Shown here: piece by piece, positions 10,700 to 19,957 of the stretch
How positions within the stretch are numbered: the first letter of the stretch is position 1
Layout of the letters: every line of letters starts with the position of its first letter
Assembly (NCBI GenBank): GCA_016181145.1
Contig: JACOZW010000023.1
Coordinates: forward strand, 1-48,398
DNA: 48,398 nt
Source: Candidatus Yanofskybacteria bacterium
Lineage (GTDB): Bacteria > Patescibacteriota > Minisyncoccia > 2-02-FULL-40-12 > GWA2-44-9
Reading direction: 5' to 3'
Notes under the pieces: model-generated
Told to the model about the DNA's origin: nothing
The model's database searches: none
What the model saw: the letters and a program-made list of their open reading frames with translations, nothing else
Program-made: the position numbers and the translations under genes

Positions 10700-11950
10700 T
10701 TAGAGCCGATTTTTGATATCTGACAATGCCACTAATTCGAGCTCTTTTTTATTGCGATGTTTAAGTTCGACACTGTCTTTTTCGAGAGTTTTCTTGCTGA
10801 CCACCAGACGGATTGGGCATCCGATTAGATCGGCATCGGCGAACTTTTCACCCGGAGCTTTGTCTTCACGATCGTCGTATAAAACTTCGACATTATTTTT
10901 GATTAAATCTTCATAAATCTTATTTGCGTAATTCGTAATTCGTAATTCGCTATTCTGTTCATTTAATGTAATTAAATGAACACGGAAAGGAGCGATGTTC
11001 TCCGGCCAAATAATTCCCTTGTCATCACTGGATACTTCTACAACTGTTGCCATAATCCTGCCTAAACCTATCCCGTAAGCACCCATGATCACCGGTTTTT
11101 TATCCCCCCCCTCATCTGTAAAATAGAGCCCTAAAGCTTCAGAATATTTTGTTCCCTGATCAAATATATTGCCGACTTCAATCGATTTCTTTTCTACCAA
11201 ATCTTCTTTCTTCCAACCGAGATGTTTTAATCCCCTTTCATCAAAAACTTCTTTATTGATAGCCTCATTTTTATCTTCATTAACATATATGGTGTCTTCT
11301 CCGACATCGGCCACAACCTGAAATTCATGAGTAAATTTATCTGTAAAAATTCCGCCTGCTGCCAGCGTATACACAGCCTTGAGCCCACAACGATTAAAAA
11401 TTTTTAGATAAGCATTTTTCGCCTTTTCATAATACTCATTAAGGCTTTCCTGGCTGGCATGAAAACTGTAAAGATCTTTCATCATAAATTCCCTTCCCCG
11501 TAAAAGTCCCGACTTGGCTCTTGCTTCATGTCTAAACTTAGTCTGGATCTGATAGGCAGAAAATGGCAGGTCCTTATAGGAGCTTATGTATCTGGCTGAG
11601 ATAGCAGTTAGAACTTCTTCGTGCGACCAACCCATAACAAAACTGGCTTCCTCCTCTCCTAGGCCTTTAGCAAAATACCCGACATCTAAGTTCCATCGTC
11701 CAGTCGGTTCCATATATTTCTTTTCAACTAGCGCTGACATAAATAACTCTTGCCCGCCAATAGCATTAATTTCTTCACGAATAACATTGGCTATCTTACT
11801 AAGAACACGCCATCCTAGCGGCAAGTAAGAATATATTCCGGCTGAATTTTTAAAAACAAAACCGCCCCGAATTAACAGCTGGGCATTTATCGCTGTTTCA
11901 TCCGTCGGCGCTTCTCTTAAGGTTTTAGTAAATAATTGAGAAAATTTCAT
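10700..11950 (-). CDS. proS: prolyl-tRNA synthetase (short form, no editing insertion)
   Basis: FRHEARAKSGLLRGREFMMKDLYSF (motif 2), GAYGIGLGRIMA (motif 3) and a C-terminal anticodon-binding domain. Confidence 0.9.
   Translation of the reverse strand: MKFSQLFTKTLREAPTDETAINAQLLIRGGFVFKNSAGIYSYLPLGWRVLSKIANVIREEINAIGGQELFMSALVEKKYMEPTGRWNLDVGYFAKGLGEEEASFVMGWSHEEVLTAISARYISSYKDLPFSAYQIQTKFRHEARAKSGLLRGREFMMKDLYSFHASQESLNEYYEKAKNAYLKIFNRCGLKAVYTLAAGGIFTDKFTHEFQVVADVGEDTIYVNEDKNEAINKEVFDERGLKHLGWKKEDLVEKKSIEVGNIFDQGTKYSEALGLYFTDEGGDKKPVIMGAYGIGLGRIMATVVEVSSDDKGIIWPENIAPFRVHLITLNEQNSELRITNYANKIYEDLIKNNVEVLYDDREDKAPGEKFADADLIGCPIRLVVSKKTLEKDSVELKHRNKKELELVALSDIKNRL
10928..10948. repeat. (GTAATTC)x3 heptamer microsatellite inside proS
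   Basis: Three perfect tandem heptamers, 21 nt and in frame, encoding ELRITNY. Confidence 0.9.
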
Positions 11951-14144: not shown

Positions 14145-15014
14145 ATGACTATTTACGGTCTTGGAATTATAGCAGCTTTCGGAGCGTTAATTTTTTGGGG
14201 AGTTGGGGATTTTCTGATTCAAAGATCTGTTCGTCGACTTGGCGACTGGGAACCTCTTTTTATCATCTCTCTCTTCGGCTCAATAATTATAACTCCTTTT
14301 GTATGGCATGATCTCCAGATTATTACTACTTCTGGTAATTTTATCCTATTAATCACAGTCGCGGTAACTTTTCTATGCGCCTCGCTTCTTGAATTTCAAG
14401 GATATAAAATCGGTAAGTTGGCGGTTATAGAGCCAATCCAAGTACTAGAAATACCAATTAGCGCCTTCCTAGCTTTTTTCTTATTATATGAGAGGCCAAC
14501 AAGTATGGTAATTCTACTTGTTCTAATCCTAATATTCGGCCTTGTTCTGATATCAGTCAAACGTCATCATTTTTTAAAAAAGTCTTGGCTGGAAAAAGGG
14601 ATCATATTTGCTATTGCTGCGTCATTTTTCATGGGTATTACTAACTTCCTAGTCGCTTATTCTTCTCGACTCACAAACCCGCTTATCGCAATTTGGTTTT
14701 TCAATATTTTTATTACATTGACCACCTTTATCTATCTCACTGCAATGGGTAAGATTCATAACTTATTTAAAGATTTTACCTCTAATCCAAAACTGATGAC
14801 CGCGGTCTGCGTTTTTGATAATTTAGCTTGGATCTCATTTGCATTTGCCTCAAGCGTAGTGCCGGTTATAACTGCACTTGCTATATCCGAAAGCTATATT
14901 GTATTAGCATCAATCCTAGGAATTTTCTACAACAATGAACGTCTTGCGCGCTATCAAATCGCAGGTCTTTTTATTGTCATTCCTAATGCTATAATTTTAG
15001 CAATCATAGCTTGA
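14145..15014 (+). CDS. EamA/DMT-family transporter
   Basis: 289 aa with about 10 hydrophobic segments in two similar halves, typical of drug/metabolite transporters. Confidence 0.7.
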   Translation: MTIYGLGIIAAFGALIFWGVGDFLIQRSVRRLGDWEPLFIISLFGSIIITPFVWHDLQIITTSGNFILLITVAVTFLCASLLEFQGYKIGKLAVIEPIQVLEIPISAFLAFFLLYERPTSMVILLVLILIFGLVLISVKRHHFLKKSWLEKGIIFAIAASFFMGITNFLVAYSSRLTNPLIAIWFFNIFITLTTFIYLTAMGKIHNLFKDFTSNPKLMTAVCVFDNLAWISFAFASSVVPVITALAISESYIVLASILGIFYNNERLARYQIAGLFIVIPNAIILAIIA

Positions 15015-15031
15015 TACTGTAGCCACAAAGC

Positions 15032-15060
15032 TTGACATATTATGGTTTATGGCTTATCAT
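15032..15060 (+). promoter_or_regulatory. sigma70-type promoter of ligase sub-operon 1
   Basis: TTGACA (15032-15037), 17-nt spacer, TATCAT (15055-15060). The ATG of the small ORF lies only 10 nt after the -10 box. Confidence 0.5.
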
Positions 15061-15069
15061 TGAGAAAAC

Positions 15070-15141
15070 ATGAATTTAAGACTTATAAATACAAATTGGC
15101 ATTATCACTCAACATTCTCTCGTGAAAGAGGGTTGAGTTAA
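15070..15141 (+). CDS. 23-codon aromatic-rich small ORF (MNLRLINTNWHYHSTFSRERGLS): leader peptide or precursor peptide
   Basis: Not in the ORF track. It is paralogous to the small ORF at 17052-17126, with synonymous differences at conserved residues. It would be near-leaderless and no SD is present. Confidence 0.4.
   Translation: MNLRLINTNWHYHSTFSRERGLS
15108..15137 (+). promoter_or_regulatory. hairpin 1 of a putative attenuator
   Basis: CTCAAC-a-TTCTCT [CGTGAA] AGAGGG-TTGAG. It starts at the last aromatic codon of the small ORF and ends 1 nt before its stop codon. Confidence 0.4.
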
Positions 15142-15173
15142 TGTCTCTATTTTCCAATTTTTGACATAAATTT

Positions 15174-15200
15174 AGCCCCCTCTCACGAGGGGGCTTCTTG
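15174..15200 (+). terminator. terminator-like hairpin upstream of ligase 1
   Basis: AGCCCCCTC-TCAC-GAGGGGGCT (9 bp) followed by TCTTGTTG. Its 5' arm CCCTCT can alternatively pair with AGAGGG of hairpin 1. Confidence 0.5.
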
Positions 15201-15239
15201 TTGCTCAAGAGGCTTAGTTCTTTTAACAGGGAGGTGTAG

Positions 15240-16157
15240 GTGGAAAGATTAGTTCGTTATTTCACGGAAGGGATAGAAAATCGACCCATTGCCAATACTA
15301 TAGGAGTAGAGGTTGAAACTTCGTTTATGATGGAACATGAGAATGGCAGTCCAATTACTGTCGCTCAATCTCAACTATTGATAGAAAGATTCCGTAGAGT
15401 TAAAGATTGGCGAATAACTAAAACGAAAGGAAATCTGATAGCAGAAATATCAGACGGCGCAAATAAACTATCTTACGAATTGGGTCGACAGAATCTCGAG
15501 CTTTCAATAGCGCCTGATACAAATAGTGCGGTGGCTGTTTCAAGGGCGATGAAACTTGCGGATGAACTAGGATCTGTTGCAAGTTATGTCTCCGATCCAG
15601 ATGCCCGCTTTTTATGGGAGGTGAGCGAACCGATAATTCATACTAATGAGGATCTACTTATGATTCCGGATGAACGAGATGCAACATGGCTTGAGCTTGA
15701 TGGCCGCCCCGCGCTAGAACTTCTTGCAAGGACATCGGCAGTTCAATTCACTATTTCCGTATCGCTGAAAGATGCAATCGAGTGTTTAAACAGATTAGGA
15801 GAAAAGATAGGATCGTTTCTAAAGGATTATCCACAAGAAGAAAATTGGCGGAGGTATATCAAAGAATCAAAAGCCGACTATCACGCGATGCGATATGGCG
15901 GCCCATTATTTTTCGATAGTATTGAAGATTATTGTAAAAAATTAATTAAGCACAATGTCGTCGTAGGCCCAGAACTCGTTCCCTATAATCAAGTGCGCGA
16001 TCTAGATATCCCTCTTTATCTGCGTTCTATCTGGTGGTATTTTCGCCTAAGACGCTACGAAAACACACTTTGCATAGAGGTTAGACCGTTGCCACGGCGC
16101 GATAGTAGAAAATTCAAAGAGCAATTTGATTTTGTAATGAATATCATGCAAAGCTAG
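15240..16157 (+). CDS. glutamate-cysteine-ligase family 2-like carboxylate-amine ligase, paralog 1 (divergent metal motif)
   Basis: GTG start 5 nt after GGGAGG. Motifs IGVEVETSF, ELGRQNLELSIAP and LCIEVRPLP are in family order. TSAVQFTIS replaces the GxHxH motif. Confidence 0.65.
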   Translation: MERLVRYFTEGIENRPIANTIGVEVETSFMMEHENGSPITVAQSQLLIERFRRVKDWRITKTKGNLIAEISDGANKLSYELGRQNLELSIAPDTNSAVAVSRAMKLADELGSVASYVSDPDARFLWEVSEPIIHTNEDLLMIPDERDATWLELDGRPALELLARTSAVQFTISVSLKDAIECLNRLGEKIGSFLKDYPQEENWRRYIKESKADYHAMRYGGPLFFDSIEDYCKKLIKHNVVVGPELVPYNQVRDLDIPLYLRSIWWYFRLRRYENTLCIEVRPLPRRDSRKFKEQFDFVMNIMQS

Positions 16158-16167
16158 AACACGCCAC

Positions 16168-16194
16168 GGGGAGATTCCCTTCTCCCCTCTTTTC
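16168..16194 (+). terminator. terminator/partial terminator between ligase 1 and the amidotransferase gene
   Basis: GGGGAGA-TTCCCT-TCTCCCC followed by TCTTTT. Confidence 0.55.
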
Positions 16195-16245
16195 TAAAGT
16201 AATTTTAATGTATAAGATTACTTTAGAGAGGTTTAATAATCACAT

Positions 16246-17016
16246 ATGAAAAACAAAAACATAAAAATCCTTTTTCTCGATATCTTCACTGACAACGAAA
16301 AGTTCAGAAAAGAGCTTGAGAAAAAAGTTTATAACGGACGAAGTTTATCTGAGCATGTCAGAAAAGTTTTTGGATTGGATAAAAACCAATGGCTAACCCT
16401 AGATGCCTCTAAAGATATTTTTCCCGATAAATTTCTTAATGTTGATGCAGTAGTAATAAGCGGTTCATCTAAAGATCCGGTAAAGGGACAGGAGAAGAAA
16501 TGGATGCGCGATACTTATAAATTTATAAGAAAAGCGATTAAAAAAGATCTTCCTATTCTTGGTATTTGCGGAGGGTTGCAGTTTACAGTTAGGGCTTTAG
16601 GCGGAGAAATAATTTATAATCCTAACGGCAAAGAATTCGGGGCTATAACGGTAACTATCAAAAAATCTGACCCCCTATTCAATGGCTTGAAGAAAAATTT
16701 TATCATCCCATCAAATCACCAATGTATGGTCGGTAAATTTAATTCCAGCGCTAAGCTGTTGGCCAGCTCTAAAATGTGCTCGGTTCAAGCTCTAGCAATC
16801 GGCGACAAAATAAGATTAGTCCAATTCCACCCCGAAAGAACTAAAGAGCAGAATATGATTTTAGCAAAAATGTCTAAAGAGAATTTGGTCAGAGATGGAA
16901 TTATAAAAAACGAAAAAGAATATCCGAAATTTTTAGAATCCCTAAAAACCGATATGGGCGCCGGCAAAGTAATAATCAAAAATTTTCTGGATAACTTTGT
17001 TTACAAAATGAATTGA
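16246..17016 (+). CDS. class-I glutamine amidotransferase-like / gamma-glutamyl hydrolase-like protein
   Basis: Nucleophile elbow PILGICGGLQF and the His-Glu pair in VQFHPE. Confidence 0.8.
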   Translation: MKNKNIKILFLDIFTDNEKFRKELEKKVYNGRSLSEHVRKVFGLDKNQWLTLDASKDIFPDKFLNVDAVVISGSSKDPVKGQEKKWMRDTYKFIRKAIKKDLPILGICGGLQFTVRALGGEIIYNPNGKEFGAITVTIKKSDPLFNGLKKNFIIPSNHQCMVGKFNSSAKLLASSKMCSVQALAIGDKIRLVQFHPERTKEQNMILAKMSKENLVRDGIIKNEKEYPKFLESLKTDMGAGKVIIKNFLDNFVYKMN

Positions 17017-17041
17017 CTCATAAATTCAAAGGTGCTATAAT
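17013..17041 (+). promoter_or_regulatory. sigma70-type promoter of ligase sub-operon 2
   Basis: TTGACT (17013-17018, overlapping the preceding TGA stop), 17-nt spacer, TATAAT (17036-17041) with TGc upstream. An ATG follows 11 nt later. Confidence 0.55.
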
Positions 17042-17051
17042 TCACATAACA

Positions 17052-17126
17052 ATGAATAATTTATACAAAAACACTAATTTTTATTGGTTTACATATAACC
17101 TCTCTCGGGGAAGGTGTTTTTGTTAG
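17052..17126 (+). CDS. 24-codon aromatic-rich small ORF (MNNLYKNTNFYWFTYNLSRGRCFC): paralog of 15070-15141
   Basis: Not in the ORF track. It shares MN, NTN at codons 7-9, an aromatic block at codons 10-15 and SRxR with the first small ORF. It has the same promoter-to-ATG geometry. Confidence 0.4.
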   Translation: MNNLYKNTNFYWFTYNLSRGRCFC

Positions 17127-17152
17127 GCTAAACTCTCAGTAGCTAGCGACAT

Positions 17153-17180
17153 AAAAACCTCTTCCTCGGAAGAGGTTTTT
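17153..17180 (+). terminator. terminator-like hairpin upstream of ligase 2
   Basis: AAAAACCTCTTCC-TC-GGAAGAGGTTTTT, a 13-bp stem with a T5 tail abutting ATG 17181. Confidence 0.5.
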
Positions 17181-18011
17181 ATGTCTTCCGAACAGCTCTT
17201 TAACAAAAGGAGGGACGAGATGAAACCAGAAAATGAACTGAATTTATTTCTCGATAAAATCGTATTCAGGCCGGAAATGACCGGTTCAATAGGTATTGAA
17301 AGAGAACATTTTCTTGAAATCCATGCCGAAATTAATGATTGTCTGCCTTCTTTGTGTGTTCCTTACGCCGGATGGTTTTTAAGAAACATAAACGACGACA
17401 GGTGGACTTATGAATTATCGGCCTGCCAAGTTGAGTCAAGAACCAATCCCCAGATAGATCTTTCTGCTCTTAAGCTAGAACTCTATGAGAATCTGAATCT
17501 AAGTAATGCGACTGCGCAAAAAATGGGTATTTATCTGGTTAACCATGAAGTAGCAGATAGATTTATGCCGCTTGATGTCTATCCCGACCCGAGATATCTC
17601 GAAATCGTAAAGCGCATTTCCGAGGAAGAGCTGCGTGCAGCTTGTAGGGTAGCCGGAACCCATATTCACATCGGGGCCAGAGACATAAACCATGCAATTG
17701 CCATTAACAATTTACTTGCTCCGCGCATCGATGCTTTGTGCAGAATCAGCGACCACTCAAATGGAGAACGGCTCCATCTTTATAAAACAATGGCTAAAAA
17801 TTGGCAGCCGACCACATATGAAAGTCCGGAACATCTATTCGAGGTCGCAAAAACCGAAGGCTTTATCGATAATCCGAGAAACTGTTGGAAACTTATCAGA
17901 GTAAGCATTCACGGAACTATTGAATTAAGAATGTTTGGCGCGACCAATAGTATTGATGAAATATTGGAATGGGTTTCGTTTGTGAAATATCTCATCAAGG
18001 AGGCAATGTAA
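17181..18011 (+). CDS. glutamate-cysteine-ligase family 2-like carboxylate-amine ligase, paralog 2
   Basis: IGIEREHFL, ELSACQVESRTNP, AGTHIHIG and GTIELRMFG. The better start is probably ATG 17220, 5 nt after AAGGAGGG. Confidence 0.75.
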   Translation: MSSEQLFNKRRDEMKPENELNLFLDKIVFRPEMTGSIGIEREHFLEIHAEINDCLPSLCVPYAGWFLRNINDDRWTYELSACQVESRTNPQIDLSALKLELYENLNLSNATAQKMGIYLVNHEVADRFMPLDVYPDPRYLEIVKRISEEELRAACRVAGTHIHIGARDINHAIAINNLLAPRIDALCRISDHSNGERLHLYKTMAKNWQPTTYESPEHLFEVAKTEGFIDNPRNCWKLIRVSIHGTIELRMFGATNSIDEILEWVSFVKYLIKEAM

Positions 18012-19429
18012 TGTCACGACCGGATTCAAGTACCTCACTGCAAGCAGAAAAGGAGATGCTGGAAGCGTTCACTATCCAAACCCAAGAGCTGATAGCCTCG
18101 CAGGATAGATTTATCAAGGACAACTATGGCGTTAAAATAGGACTGGAATCGGAATTGGCAATTCACGGTAGGTTCGACAATACGGAATTGACTCAAAAAA
18201 GAGATGCAGTTATTGCTGATAATAAAGATTTTACAGATATTGAACTCGGAGCCAATCAGATAGAAATACGAACTCCTCCGCTGGATATCCTATCGAGTGA
18301 CGGGTTAGCCTCTCTGGATAATATATACAGAGCAAGATATAACGCAGTACTAGAGTCAGCTCGCAGGAATAAAGTAGGACTGCTCCGTATCGGCGCGAAT
18401 CCTTTCTTGCCAACGATAAATACGCCCAGAACAGATAAGCCTAAATATCGTTTAGTGCCCGATTTCTATAATCAGCACAGAGATCCAAGACTCGATACAT
18501 TCATCGGTCTTGGCAAAAGCAGAATTGATATTGGCGATGCATCTGTCGTATCCCTATTTCAATCTTTTCAGGTTAATCTAGAAGCAAAATCTCTAGACGA
18601 TGCCTGCGAAAAAATGAATAGGTCCCTAGCTATTGCTCCCTATCTTCTGGCTTTTTCCGGTAATGCCAGATATCTGAGCCATCAGGACACCAAAATCCAA
18701 GATACGCGGATGATGAGCTGGGAAATCAGCCATGACACCAGAACTTTCTATGATACCAAGTTACAAGATTTGAGAATTATATCTTGGGAAAGAAGCTTTG
18801 ATGTAAGGCCGGAAAAAAACGAAAACTGGTCTAATGAATTAAGAATCGGCCTACCGAGCAGGTATTTTAGAAATATGACCGATTACTTTCAAAGAGCCGG
18901 AACATTTCCATTTATCTTATACGCACCGGAATCTGCATTGGCAATTTCAATAGGCATGACCTGGTTGGATGCCAGAACTAAATTCATAGGAGATTCGGCG
19001 ATAGTTGAACTGCGACTGCCATCCACTCAGCCCACAATAGAAGAAGAGATGTTATTGACCCTCCTCTATATCGGCAGACTCCACTATGCCCAGACAAACC
19101 AAGAACAAATACTGCCTATAAATATGGTCAGAGAAAACAGGCTTTCGGCCATGTTATATGGATTCAAAAAGTCGATGTGGTTCTTAAGTGAAAACGGCGC
19201 CCCGATAAAACTACCGACCAAAATAGGATTGGCAAGAGAACTGGAGCTGGCTATAATCGGCTTAAATCAGTTGGGATTATCGACGGCTATAGATAAAGAG
19301 TTGCTCGATGCTGTCCTCAAAACAGACTCTCCCTCAGATAGATTAGCGAGATTTCTAGATCCAATTAATGAAGCATCAATTACTGACATGGAAGATGCTC
19401 TATCGGAAACAAAAATGTTAATTTCATAA
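18011..19429 (+). CDS. glutamate-cysteine-ligase-like carboxylate-amine ligase, paralog 3 (long form)
   Basis: ATG 18011 lies 7 nt after AAGGAGG and overlaps the upstream stop (TAATG). Motifs IGLESELAI, ELGANQIEIRTPP and AIVELRLPS are present. The track start at 17969 is rejected. Confidence 0.75.
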   Translation: MSRPDSSTSLQAEKEMLEAFTIQTQELIASQDRFIKDNYGVKIGLESELAIHGRFDNTELTQKRDAVIADNKDFTDIELGANQIEIRTPPLDILSSDGLASLDNIYRARYNAVLESARRNKVGLLRIGANPFLPTINTPRTDKPKYRLVPDFYNQHRDPRLDTFIGLGKSRIDIGDASVVSLFQSFQVNLEAKSLDDACEKMNRSLAIAPYLLAFSGNARYLSHQDTKIQDTRMMSWEISHDTRTFYDTKLQDLRIISWERSFDVRPEKNENWSNELRIGLPSRYFRNMTDYFQRAGTFPFILYAPESALAISIGMTWLDARTKFIGDSAIVELRLPSTQPTIEEEMLLTLLYIGRLHYAQTNQEQILPINMVRENRLSAMLYGFKKSMWFLSENGAPIKLPTKIGLARELELAIIGLNQLGLSTAIDKELLDAVLKTDSPSDRLARFLDPINEASITDMEDALSETKMLIS

Positions 19430-19433
19430 ATAT

Positions 19434-19487
19434 AAGCGGTTTGATATCTTCCCTCCAGAGGCGGGCAGACAGACCGCTTTTTTATTT
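19434..19487 (+). terminator. terminator of ligase sub-operon 2
   Basis: AAGCGGT (19434-19440) pairs with ACCGCTT (19473-19479) around an internal GC stem, followed by T6. Confidence 0.45.
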
Positions 19488-19512
19488 TTCAAAAATACCC
19501 ATTAAATCATAA

Positions 19513-19542
19513 TTGACATAAATCCGATATAAATGCTATAAA
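19513..19542 (+). promoter_or_regulatory. promoter of the 121-aa gene
   Basis: TTGACA (19513-19518), 18-nt spacer ending in TGc, then TATAAA (19537-19542). Confidence 0.45.
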
Positions 19543-19577
19543 ACAAGAAGTTCCTAATCCTTTCGAGGAAAAGACAC

Positions 19578-19943
19578 ATGGTAGCATTGAATTCATCGAG
19601 AATTAGCAGAATTATTGGACTACTAATCAAATACACAAATTCAGCAAGCATGCGCTGGATTTCCTCAGCCTATCCTTACCGCAAGAAGGGCATTTTACCA
19701 GAAATGGTTCCCTGCTATTCAGCTCAGCGAGGGACACTGAATATTGAAATATTTTTTAAATTCGCAGGTCACCGCCAGCCAGCGAAAGCGGTTCTTGATA
19801 TCGACGGTGTCCTATACCAGGGAACGGAGGTTGATGAACTTACGGATGCAGTAATAAAGAGCATGTCACAGTCGCTGAAAAATACTCTGGATCATGCCGA
19901 TATTATCTACAACGAAGAACTTATGAAAAAACTCGAGGCCTGA
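19578..19943 (+). CDS. hypothetical 121-aa protein
   Basis: GAGGA about 9 nt upstream of the ATG, with its own promoter and terminator. No recognisable motif. Confidence 0.55.
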   Translation: MVALNSSRISRIIGLLIKYTNSASMRWISSAYPYRKKGILPEMVPCYSAQRGTLNIEIFFKFAGHRQPAKAVLDIDGVLYQGTEVDELTDAVIKSMSQSLKNTLDHADIIYNEELMKKLEA

Positions 19944-19957
19944 TAAGCCTCGTTTTT
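19934..19957. terminator. bidirectional terminator (121-aa gene / holB)
   Basis: CGAGGC-CTGATAA-GCCTCG followed by T5. The hairpin contains the TGA stop. Confidence 0.6.

Follow-up and report, generated by a model that had tools for sequence, protein, structure and literature searches.

The 48,398-nt contig JACOZW010000023.1 of a Candidatus Yanofskybacteria bacterium, hereafter the window, carries between positions 14145 and 19957 a compact cluster in which three carboxylate-amine ligase genes, designated LigA, LigB, and LigC, are associated with a class-I glutamine amidotransferase (GATase) gene. We interpret this locus, with a probability of about one in two, as a set of amino-acid-specific modules of ligate-then-hydrolyze salvage that are induced by starvation and conserved in Patescibacteria, also termed the candidate phyla radiation (CPR). 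The interpretation draws on the folds of the ligases and the integrity of their motifs, the conservation of gene order, an attenuator architecture with covariation, the codon code of the leaders, and associations with genes for repressors and aminoacyl-tRNA synthetases (aaRSs). The features at its core are the following.

15032–15060, + strand: promoter-like site of the LigA leader, TTGACA-17-TATCAT (11/12 match), ending 10 nt 5′ of the leader ATG
15070–15141, + strand: LigA leader open reading frame (ORF) MNLRLINTNWHYHSTFSRERGLS, with regulatory codons W10-H11-Y12-H13, conserved in relatives
15098–15195, + strand: LigA attenuator RNA, with hairpin 1:2 at 15098–15145, an antiterminator pairing 15121–15145 with 15163–15187, and a terminator at 15174–15195 followed by a T-rich tail
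15240–16157, + strand: LigA ORF, 305 aa, a carboxylate-amine ligase of the glutamate-cysteine ligase (GCL)/glutamine synthetase (GS) fold
16246–17016, + strand: class-I GATase/peptidase-C26-type ORF (Pfam PF00117, PF07722)
17013–17041, + strand: promoter-like site of the LigB-LigC leader, TTGACT-17-TG-TATAAT (11/12 match, extended −10), ending 10 nt 5′ of the leader ATG
17052–17126, + strand: LigB-LigC leader ORF MNNLYKNTNFYWFTYNLSRGRCFC, with the aromatic patch F10-Y11-W12-F13-T14-Y15
17099–17180, + strand: LigB-LigC attenuator RNA, with region 1 at 17099–17104, region 2 at 17109–17114, an antiterminator pairing 17106–17123 with 17151–17168, and a terminator at 17158–17175 with A/U extensions and a T-run at 17176–17180
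17220–18011 (longer frame from 17181), + strand: LigB ORF, 263 aa, a "mini" YbdK/GCS2-like ligase
18011–19429, + strand: LigC ORF, 472 aa, a GCS2-family ligase

The two intergenic regions that precede ligase genes, 15015–15239 (LigA) and 17017–17219 (LigB), each hold what is predicted from the nucleotide sequence to be a ribosome-mediated attenuator of textbook layout. Each switch consists of a promoter, an ORF of roughly 23 codons that starts ~10 nt past the −10 box, a first hairpin, and a strong terminator. Both promoter-like sites rank among the three best on the + strand of the region, the LigA site being joint best, and the LigA terminator was found by the terminator scan. The terminators end about 40 nt 5′ of the ligase ribosome-binding site (RBS), with no room for a second promoter. 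When the window sequences are folded, the antiterminator is optimal with the front edge of the ribosome over region 1, and the terminator returns as the ribosome moves further on; for LigA, a ribosome front at 15115–15121 yields the antiterminator, and a front at 15127 or a ribosome at the stop codon yields the terminator.

An identical layout is found upstream of LigA and LigB in relatives, and a leader ORF precedes LigB in all LigB-LigC operons for which enough upstream sequence is available. A blind ORF finder, which ignored peptide content and took the longest ORF ending no more than 80 nt before a terminator that itself lay within 140 nt of the gene, recovered leaders for 28 of the 31 LigB-LigC operons and for the majority of terminator-bearing LigB-only loci. 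Different loci read through the first hairpin in different frames, so what is conserved there is the RNA and not the peptide. Minimum free energy folds of 45 leaders contain the terminator in every case with the ribosome at the stop codon and lack it in 42 of the 45 with a stall at the regulatory codon; shuffling the upstream segment as a control displaced the terminator in only 1.5% of trials. This whole-structure shuffle test took the place of a duplex-energy test confined to region 2 and the terminator 5′ arm, whose signal was weak (median z −1.45), the antiterminator of divergent leaders pairing with the loop and the 3′ arm.

Covariation supports the alternative pairings. Across an alignment of 25 LigB leaders, the 2:3 (antiterminator) helix is 88.5% paired and the terminator state 92% paired. 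The 2:3 helix contains 19 compensatory cells, compared with 7.6±2.7 in shuffles (0/500 as high) and no more than 8 in slid controls. The clearest compensatory case is at columns 46:135, where G:C gives way to A:U (14 vs 10 sequences) and the column also pairs, as C-G or U·G, in the terminator. A search of Rfam at a permissive threshold returned only chance-level matches over the leaders and no matching family. As a separate observation, the LigB-leader terminator CCTCTTYCYCGRAAGAGG (17158–17175 in the window, with about 50 related loci) is almost invariant even though the LigB proteins are only 45–65% identical, and in about 1 Mb of related DNA this sequence occurs nowhere except 35–200 nt upstream of LigB. 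Its conservation exceeds the generic need of a terminator, and a bound factor or a dual coding and structural constraint is possible.

The codons positioned to control these switches differ consistently from one ligase to another. His codons occur just before hairpin 1 in all 14 distinct LigA leaders, against a His background of 2.2%, within patches such as NWHYH, NWHHY, SYHHN, THHQN, KHYHAH, SWHWH, MMHH, and YRNHT. Trp is present in 40 of 40 distinct LigB leaders (background 1.1%). Where LigB stands without LigC, the Trp codons are tandem or repeated (NWWK, YWWT, VWWW, RWWN, WTW, WATW); in the 25 distinct leaders of LigB-LigC operons, a single Trp is accompanied by a mean of 3.3 Phe/Tyr within a 9-codon window (YWFTY, YFWF, FWYYF, FWFYF), compared with a mean of 0.8 Phe/Tyr in six LigB-only leaders. 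A LigC-only operon (L004; related loci are given L numbers throughout) has a leader, MIVLNTQSYYYFQP, with a YYYF patch and like hairpin logic, and LigC is co-transcribed there with TyrRS, the gene of which also adjoins LigC in L103 and L104.

Neighboring regulators carry a parallel signal. A YerC/YecD-family regulator, scoring above cut-off, precedes LigA in L101 and L102; in Bacillus subtilis, YerC is the TrpR-family repressor HisR, which depends on histidine (PMC9413887). TrpR-family genes precede LigB in L053, L061, L049, L093, and L068 and LigC in L017, and their best model is the trp repressor (E 1e-11 to 1e-16). Four of the five repressor-preceded LigB loci are without an attenuator, and L093 has a repressor gene plus a leader; L070 likewise combines a leader with a TrpR-family neighbor, which was not scored against curated models. 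Together, the leader codons, the HisR- and TrpR-type repressors, and the aaRS neighbors point, as the best reading, to a His regulon for LigA, a Trp regulon for LigB, and a Tyr/Phe regulon for LigC.

Two further leader-like elements lie next to aaRS genes in related loci. In a Collierbacteria contig, the operon for HisRS and an M20 deacylase is preceded on the − strand (L100:9246–9500) by a small ORF, MGMNKSVFALHQIYVNHLLGRV, two of whose codons, both for His, fall inside a hairpin. A GC-rich terminator comes next (CCCGCCCAAGCGGG, then T8), and its 5′ arm is complementary to GCTTGGGAGGG, which precedes it. This element looks like a His attenuator on the HisRS gene and as such would calibrate the codon code of the LigA leaders. 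Upstream of TyrRS in L103 (9376–9637), a small ORF, MAYGKYYSNPCGKFKLMKISL, carries three Tyr codons within a stretch of six; a hairpin follows it, with no clear U-run terminator seen, and the ORF may be a Tyr-responsive leader.

The enzymes under this control had been described in the initial annotation as three paralogous GCL-like proteins. Their common fold and order of motifs are borne out by profiles and structure models; recent paralogy is not. Pairwise BLASTP among LigA, LigB, and LigC detected no significant similarity, and single-sequence searches of the PDB with the three ligases gave no match. Alignment of the family profiles with hhalign joins LigB to LigC at 95%, LigA to LigB at 72% (E 3.5e-5), and LigA to LigC at 43%, over the full length and with the motifs in register, and profile searches of the PDB return plant GCL or YbdK as the best match for all three families. 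The AlphaFold model of LigA (pLDDT 93.6) matches plant GCL 2gwc in Foldseek (E 7e-11, TM 0.74), and that of LigB (pLDDT 95.7) matches YbdK 1r8g (E 1.3e-8, TM 0.72), the top ranks being occupied by plant GCL 2gwc, YbdK 1r8g/1tt4, GshA, and glutamine synthetases. The six-stranded GS-type fold is thereby assigned to LigA and LigB by structure model and to LigC by profile. Membership of all three in the carboxylate-amine ligase (GCL/GS) superfamily is confirmed, and they are three separate, very old families.

The motifs quoted in the initial annotation were all recovered, including GTHIHIG in the middle ligase, LigB, only. LigA has GVEVET (22–27), YELGRQNLE (79–87), SAVQFT (166–171), and CIEVRP (278–283); LigB, numbered from ATG 17220, has GIEREH (25–30), YELSACQVESRT (64–75), GTHIHIG (146–152), and IELRMFG (234–240); and LigC has GLESE (44–48), ELGANQIEIRT (78–88), FQSFQVNLE (183–191), and VELRL (332–336). 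In the family alignments the invariant residues are G22, E24, E26, E87, R262/R269, E280, and R282 in LigA; G25, E27, E29, E72, R184/R227, E235, and R237 in LigB; and G44, E46, E48, E85, R220/R322, E333, and R335 in LigC. The GhExE Mg/ATP signature, the strand-2 Glu, the Arg fingers, and the ExR strand are thus kept in all three, in line with the catalytic residues that Iyer et al. (PMC2588565) assign to the superfamily. The profile and structure comparison that had been proposed at the outset therefore finds one superfamily with catalytic motifs kept and the metal-binding His replaced in LigA and LigC: LigB retains His148 and His150, LigA has an invariant Gln169, and LigC an invariant Asn189. 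Gln169 and Asn189 could still ligate Mg.

The three families differ widely in how far existing databases recognize them. LigA has no Pfam or NCBIfam match at E <= 1, and its links are at the profile level only (plant GCL in the PDB, E 0.003, and the hhalign matches to LigB and LigC at 72% and 43%); the family is small and CPR-restricted, with only 133 representatives among 1.84 billion proteins. LigB, with more than 677 homologues, falls below cut-off for PF04107 (15.7 bits, cut-off 21) and for TIGR02050 of NCBIfam (E 4.6e-11, 42.6 bits, cut-off 176), and its match to Amidoligase_2 (PF12224) is marginal (E 0.017); many of its homologues bear a precomputed PF04107 match. LigC scores above the PF04107 cut-off (25.0 bits, cut-off 21), and all of its 113 homologues, from CPR bacteria and one DPANN archaeon, carry PF04107.

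Homologue lengths and the position of an RBS (AAAGGAGG, 17206–17213) support ATG 17220 as the probable start of LigB. LigC follows through the TAATG overlap at 18009–18013, present as originally described; its RBS, AAGGAGG (17997–18003), lies just 5′ of the overlap, and LigC is translationally coupled to LigB. LigC also contains an internal tandem duplication of 16 aa (18695–18742 and 18761–18808), comprising residues 229–244 (IQDTRMMSWEISHDTR) and 251–266 (LQDLRIISWERSFDVR). The duplicated segment holds the invariant family residues D231, R233, W237, H241, and D242; the second copy and linker occur only in the LigB-linked subgroup and are absent in the LigC-only, MR_MLE-linked subgroup.

Conservation of the neighborhood, which the initial annotation had singled out as a check, is clear: LigA-GATase-LigB-LigC recurs on one strand in at least 13 further Patescibacteria (CPR) loci from GTDB genomes and metagenomes, the closely related loci and homologues coming from Candidatus Yanofskybacteria and other Parcubacteria. 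GATase-LigB-LigC without LigA is found in many more loci. LigB is the commonest member and the core of the module, and it occurs in the arrangements B-C, B-G, G-B, A-B, B-A, and B alone (G denoting the GATase); LigA is also found alone, and LigC alone or within a different cluster. In one of these loci (L002:4973–10259), a GATase-leader-LigB-LigC block sits exactly between glyA, for serine hydroxymethyltransferase (SHMT), and folD, a single case that we treat as coincidental. A role in folate polyglutamylation, considered from the SHMT/FolD flanks of that locus, was dropped, as it concerns one lineage only and does not fit the regulation.

The GATase gene is conserved beside LigB-LigC in relatives, and its product has the class-I catalytic context that had been noted, with Cys108 (GICGG) and His195/Glu197 (FHPE) and with scores above cut-off for PF00117 (71.4 bits, cut-off 22.8) and Peptidase_C26 PF07722 (41.5 bits, cut-off 20.5). 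Its best NCBIfam match, PRK09065 (E 3.5e-33), is below cut-off. Other lineages have different enzymes at this position. In L097, L099, and L105, LigB-LigC is followed by a class-II (N-terminal nucleophile, Ntn) GATase_4 protein in place of the class-I GATase, and the one scanned, from L097, has EgtC as its best match; an M20 ArgE/DapE-type deacylase adjoins LigB in L074, L084, and L092 and LigA in L100 and L101. The occurrence of three unrelated amidohydrolases at one position argues that the GATase serves as an amide (gamma-glutamyl) hydrolase partner of the ligases and not as an ammonia donor. The initial idea of a ligase paired with a gamma-glutamyl-type hydrolase therefore fits, the partner being swapped elsewhere for an EgtC-like or M20 hydrolase.

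A distinct LigC subtype adds a third component, an MR_MLE enzyme encoded between LigC and the GATase. The patescibacterial locus L103 has the order LigC-MR_MLE-GATase-306-aa ORF-TyrRS, and the DPANN archaeal locus L104 (4133–9221) the order AsnC-type regulator-291-aa ORF-LigC-MR_MLE-GATase-EamA, with an aminotransferase and TyrRS adjoining. The nearest characterized or solved relatives of the L103 MR_MLE protein are o-succinylbenzoate synthase (OSBS)/N-succinylamino-acid racemases, N-acetyl-D-Glu racemase, Ala-Glu and dipeptide epimerases, and N-acylamino acid racemase. No MR_MLE homologue was found in the 48-kb window or in any LigB-type locus, and neither a TrpR/HisR-like gene nor an M20 gene was found in the window. 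Since L103 and L104 have this core in common, the module may have passed from one of these groups of ultra-small symbionts to the other. Accompanying LigC-MR_MLE-GATase in both domains are the 306-aa (L103:8455–9375) and 291-aa (L104:4133–5008) ORFs, which form one conserved family with the motif IYHHIADTHA; searches with this family gave a marginal, partial match to a TyrRS model (E 0.009) and no PDB match.

Taken as salvage induced by starvation, the window locus would operate as two regulated units, leader-LigA and leader-LigB-LigC, each transcribed from its own promoter with a nearly leaderless short ORF. A ribosome pausing at His codons (LigA) or at Trp plus Phe/Tyr codons (LigB-LigC) would favor the antiterminator and hence transcription of the ligase genes; a ribosome reaching the stop codon would allow the terminator to form. 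Both units should consequently switch on when charging of the His, Trp, or Tyr/Phe tRNAs is low. The leader ORFs are then, by their predicted architecture, regulatory leader peptides and are not likely to be substrates. Starvation-type attenuator control in bacteria is typical of genes for biosynthesis, uptake, and aaRSs, and to our knowledge CPR organisms are without biosynthetic pathways for these amino acids. Because induction would come at low levels of charged tRNA in organisms of this kind, the ligases most likely serve acquisition or salvage.

In the proposed chemistry, the cognate amino acid, or a form of it that the cell cannot use (e.g., the D-enantiomer), would be joined by each ligase, at the expense of ATP, in amide linkage to a carboxylate carrier; by comparison with GCL, the gamma-carboxyl group of glutamate is the likeliest carrier. 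A hydrolase, of the GATase type here and EgtC-like or an M20 deacylase elsewhere, would then free the usable L-amino acid, and in some LigC clusters the homologue of N-acyl-amino-acid racemases and dipeptide epimerases would act between ligation and hydrolysis. What we infer in this scheme is which substrates are used, that the intermediate is a gamma-glutamyl compound, and which way and to what end the cycle runs. A more ambitious version can be offered only tentatively: CPR bacteria and DPANN archaea would share a hitherto unrecognized ATP-driven salvage route for the four costliest amino acids, in which His, Trp, and Tyr/Phe ligases capture an unusable form (e.g., the D-enantiomer shed by neighbors) as a gamma-glutamyl conjugate, an epimerase inverts it where present, and a hydrolase frees the L-form, each branch being gated by its cognate attenuator or HisR/TrpR-type repressor.

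Several observations count against this interpretation of the locus. At the level of chemistry, a ligase and a hydrolase with no step between them constitute a futile cycle, and neither an epimerase nor another modifying enzyme is encoded in the window. As a bare ligase-hydrolase pair would be futile, the ligated and released forms must differ. The LigC-MR_MLE-GATase clusters, by analogy, suggest stereo-inversion; metabolic trapping of an imported amino acid and detoxification of D-Tyr or D-Trp are alternatives. At the level of the codon code, LigA leaders of the clade to which the window belongs conserve W-H-Y with no His run, and the second His is variable; the connection of LigC with Tyr consists of one leader and three TyrRS adjacencies; and the TrpR-type regulators score just below the curated TrpR cut-off. 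The mechanics of the switch raise further difficulties. The Trp codon of the window LigB-LigC leader lies ~14 nt before region 1, so that a ribosome paused exactly on Trp may leave region 1 uncovered, and the Phe/Thr/Tyr codons after it are better placed; the distance from Trp codon to region 1 is 11–18 nt in LigB-LigC leaders and 0–9 nt in WW-type leaders. With region 1 free, an extended [1-2]:[3-4] helix becomes the thermodynamic optimum, still abuts the U-run, and could itself terminate. The leader ORFs are also without a Shine-Dalgarno sequence, and their predicted translation relies on near-leaderless initiation.

The cluster is flanked and punctuated by features that bear on the limits of the module.

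14145–15014, + strand: EamA/DMT-family transporter gene (Pfam EamA, E 4e-20), adjoining the module and not a conserved member of it
16168–16187, + strand: terminator-like hairpin 3′ of LigA, found by the terminator scan and kept in L005
19436–19483, + strand: putative terminator 3′ of LigC (GCGGT...ACCGC then TTTTTT) at which the module ends, identified by reading the sequence and not among the hits of the simple terminator scan
19578–19943, + strand: 121-aa ORF, function unassigned, with its own promoter-like sequence and terminator, outside the conserved module

The six + strand ORFs form an island of G+C 0.38, against about 0.41, amid − strand housekeeping genes that include frr, rseP, ProRS, mreB, PBP2, LysRS, SerRS, holB, murG, and ATP synthase; a class-II aaRS at 10700–11950 was considered as HisRS, which was ruled out, the gene being that of ProRS. 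The 121-aa ORF is an orphan gene, with a TTGACA-type promoter-like sequence and a bidirectional terminator at 19934–19952; it has no Pfam or NCBIfam family match and no similarity to the 123-aa ORF beside LigC in L103. Between the LigA terminator and the start of the GATase gene, a perfect 10-bp inverted repeat, CTAAAGTAAT...ATTACTTTAG (16194–16226), forms a second conserved hairpin that is kept in L005. The repeat may act on the GATase gene, itself without an attenuator, either as an operator or as an RNA element.

A dedicated biosynthetic ligation module with an exporter, as the locus was originally construed, would have the ligases and GATase jointly produce a gamma-glutamylated compound, either a small molecule or a short peptide (for instance, a His/Trp/Tyr-containing conjugate, signal, or antimetabolite), for EamA to export. 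The intact ligase motifs of all three proteins are compatible with such a product, and peptide-metabolite synthesis has been predicted for another carboxylate-amine ligase family that lies beside GATase-like peptidases (Iyer et al., PMC2588565). The EamA gene upstream and the 121-aa gene downstream are both present as described, EamA being supported by Pfam, and a different EamA gene follows the LigC cluster of the DPANN archaeon; in about 100 related bacterial loci, however, neither the EamA gene nor the 121-aa ORF has a counterpart beside the ligases, so their membership in the module fails. The ligases also occur singly or in many combinations (A, B, B-C, A-B, C), unlike an assembly line for one product. 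The attenuators and HisR/TrpR-type repressors predict induction at scarcity, which has the wrong sign for a consuming pathway and conforms to the logic of supply or salvage. Synthesis for export therefore fits poorly, and we regard it as unlikely.

Somewhat less probable again is that the GATase is a true glutaminase feeding ammonia to one or more of the ligases, as a two-component amidotransferase that converts a carboxylate to a carboxamide in the manner of MurT/GatD or GatCAB. The triad is intact, the best family matches are stand-alone GuaA-like proteins (PRK09065, PRK00758) and not PuuD, and the exchange for a class-II GATase in other lineages would suit an ammonia donor as well. That class-II partner, however, best matches EgtC, a gamma-glutamyl-amide hydrolase, and the M20 ArgE/DapE deacylase partner of further lineages cannot supply ammonia. 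In the window the GATase gene lies separately between terminators and is not translationally coupled to a ligase, and an amidated product would not relieve a shortage of His, Trp, or Tyr.

The leaders might instead sense decoding trouble, involving queuosine-tRNAs at His/Tyr/Asn/Asp codons or i6A37-tRNAs at Phe/Tyr/Trp codons, or poisoning by D-aminoacyl-tRNAs, with the ligases acting on tRNA, on the translation apparatus, or in D-amino-acid detoxification. LigA leaders are rich in NAY codons (e.g., YRNHTD, NTNWHYH), LigB-LigC leaders use UNN codons only in their critical patch, and the ligases are often found among aaRS genes. Moreover, miaA defects derepress the trp and phe attenuators in Escherichia coli, and of all synthetases TyrRS and TrpRS discriminate least well against D-amino acids. 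Set against this are the HisR- and TrpR-type repressors beside the same ligases, which are amino-acid sensors, the tandem Trp codons of LigB-only leaders, which represent the classic design for monitoring Trp supply, and the lack of tRNA-modification genes linked to the module. We give this explanation a low probability.

It is highly improbable that the small ORFs encode precursors of ribosomally synthesized and post-translationally modified peptides (RiPPs), the ligases modifying the aromatic or His patch. Short conserved ORFs with an F-x-Y-W-F or W-H-Y patch, lying directly 5′ of enzyme genes and followed by a hairpin, do recall RiPP clusters. Yet their C-terminal halves are kept as RNA and not as peptide, given the varying frame through the hairpin; the antiterminator helix covaries; and a carboxylate-amine ligase would find no conserved Asp, Glu, Lys, or C-terminal motif to act on. 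Divergent leaders keep only their Trp codons or, taken more broadly, only their aromatic or His codons. The terminator lies only about 40 nt before the enzyme RBS, without space for another promoter, and in some leaderless loci a TrpR-family repressor gene stands directly upstream of the ligase. Ordinary synthesis of gamma-glutamylcysteine or another low-molecular-weight thiol (GshA/YbdK-like), with a gamma-glutamyl hydrolase for turnover, is scarcely credible: the nearest annotated family is GCS2/YbdK, and in some database records the homologues are named "glutamate-cysteine ligase family protein," but the scores to curated GCL/YbdK models are all far under cut-off, LigA and LigC have another residue in place of the metal-binding His, Cys codons are lacking from the critical leader patch and the regulation is specific for His, Trp, and Tyr, and gamma-Glu-Cys would not call for three different ligases.

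The significance of a starvation-induced salvage system would lie in the organisms that carry it. CPR/Patescibacteria and DPANN represent a large share of microbial diversity, are mostly uncultivated, and are without amino-acid biosynthesis, which raises the question of how they secure amino acids. Few enzyme sets in these genomes are conserved, typical of their lineage, and marked by a clear regulatory signature; the locus belongs to that small group. Placing three unannotated or barely annotated ligase families in His, Trp, and Tyr/Phe starvation regulons points to candidate substrates and inducing conditions, and it offers an annotation handle for several hundred proteins now labeled hypothetical or "glutamate-cysteine ligase family." Within the incomplete literature covered, these are apparently the first candidate leader-peptide attenuators in CPR. 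If capture or stereo-inversion through gamma-glutamyl conjugates holds true, it would constitute a new nutritional strategy, with possible medium supplements for cultivation; a salvage route would likewise be a functional substitute of a new class, standing in for amino-acid biosynthesis in minimal symbionts.

Comparison with known systems locates both the familiar and the unfamiliar parts of the locus. The attenuators resemble trpL, hisL, and pheL of Enterobacteria in having a leader ORF with cognate codons, mutually exclusive 1:2, 2:3, and 3:4 helices, an intrinsic terminator before the gene, and a stop codon placed such that a non-stalled ribosome masks region 2; His attenuators are also described in some Firmicutes (PMC9413887). 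They differ in controlling ligases in auxotrophs instead of biosynthetic operons, in their nearly leaderless mRNAs, in the small number of regulatory codons (one Trp plus two to four Phe/Tyr, or one to three His), in the lack of an Rfam match, and in the LigB-type terminator sequence, which is unusually invariant across lineages.

Among enzymes, the closest counterparts are GCS2/YbdK and plant GCL (PF04107; PDB 1r8g, 1tt4, 2gwc), with which LigA and LigB share the fold (Foldseek TM 0.72–0.74) and the ordered catalytic motifs. LigC passes the Pfam cut-off and LigB keeps HxH; in contrast, LigA matches no sequence family, LigB lacks about 110 residues relative to YbdK and stays below every curated cut-off, and LigA and LigC carry Gln and Asn in place of the metal-binding His. 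YbdK itself has weak gamma-Glu-Cys ligase activity and no settled role. We know of no attenuator regulation by His, Trp, or Tyr for GCS2 enzymes or for such ligases in auxotrophic symbionts.

The pairing of a GS/GCL-fold ligase with a class-I or EgtC-type hydrolase is shared with the gamma-glutamyl carrier pathways (PuuA/PuuD, gamma-glutamylanilide synthase/hydrolase, EgtA/EgtC), and both types of hydrolase occur with LigB-LigC in different lineages. Those pathways serve catabolism or biosynthesis, and a shortage of a proteinogenic amino acid does not induce them; they also have an oxidase, dehydrogenase, sulfoxide synthase, or methyltransferase acting between ligation and hydrolysis, which is lacking here. 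With respect to PuuA/PuuD, the ligases have no PF00120 match and 14145–19943 contains no oxidoreductase gene; with respect to ergothioneine synthesis, neither the window cluster nor any of the inspected loci contains EgtB, EgtD, or EgtE genes, and only an EgtC-like hydrolase is found in some relatives.

A parallel for the proposed chemistry is the N-succinylamino-acid racemase (NSAR) route that Sakai et al. reportedly described in 2006, an irreversible conversion of D- to L-amino acids by acylation, racemization with an enolase-superfamily enzyme, and deacylation with an M20 hydrolase. Its logic recurs in L103 and L104, with LigC, an MR_MLE homologue of NSAR and dipeptide epimerases, and a GATase hydrolase, and in the relatives that pair LigA or LigB with M20 ArgE/DapE-type deacylases. 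Here the acyl group would presumably be attached by ATP-driven ligation (glutamylation) and not by transfer from succinyl-CoA, and the window cluster is without a racemase. Neighborhoods of Amidoligase_2 (PF12224) with GATase-like thiol peptidases (Iyer et al., 2008, PMC2588565) share the superfamily and the placement of a ligase beside a GATase-like peptidase. PafA and Dop, of the same superfamily, show that paralogous pairs of this fold can ligate and hydrolyze; the window has neither proteasome genes nor a Pup-like ORF with a GGQ/GGE terminus, Foldseek matches to Dop and PafA are weak and partial, and the small leader ORFs end in ...RGLS and ...RCFC, C-termini that are not conserved.

No description matching the locus was found, in agreement with the initial annotation, in literature whose coverage is incomplete, such that a prior description is possible. 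The accessory genes that define the known pathways are all missing here, and control of such ligases by His, Trp, or Tyr starvation signals in auxotrophic symbionts has no known precedent. The proteins are remote members (LigC, LigB) or fold-level relatives (LigA) of GCS2/YbdK, the attenuators are of the trpL/hisL kind, and the underlying chemistry may, as a proposal well short of an even chance, be a new route of amino-acid salvage.

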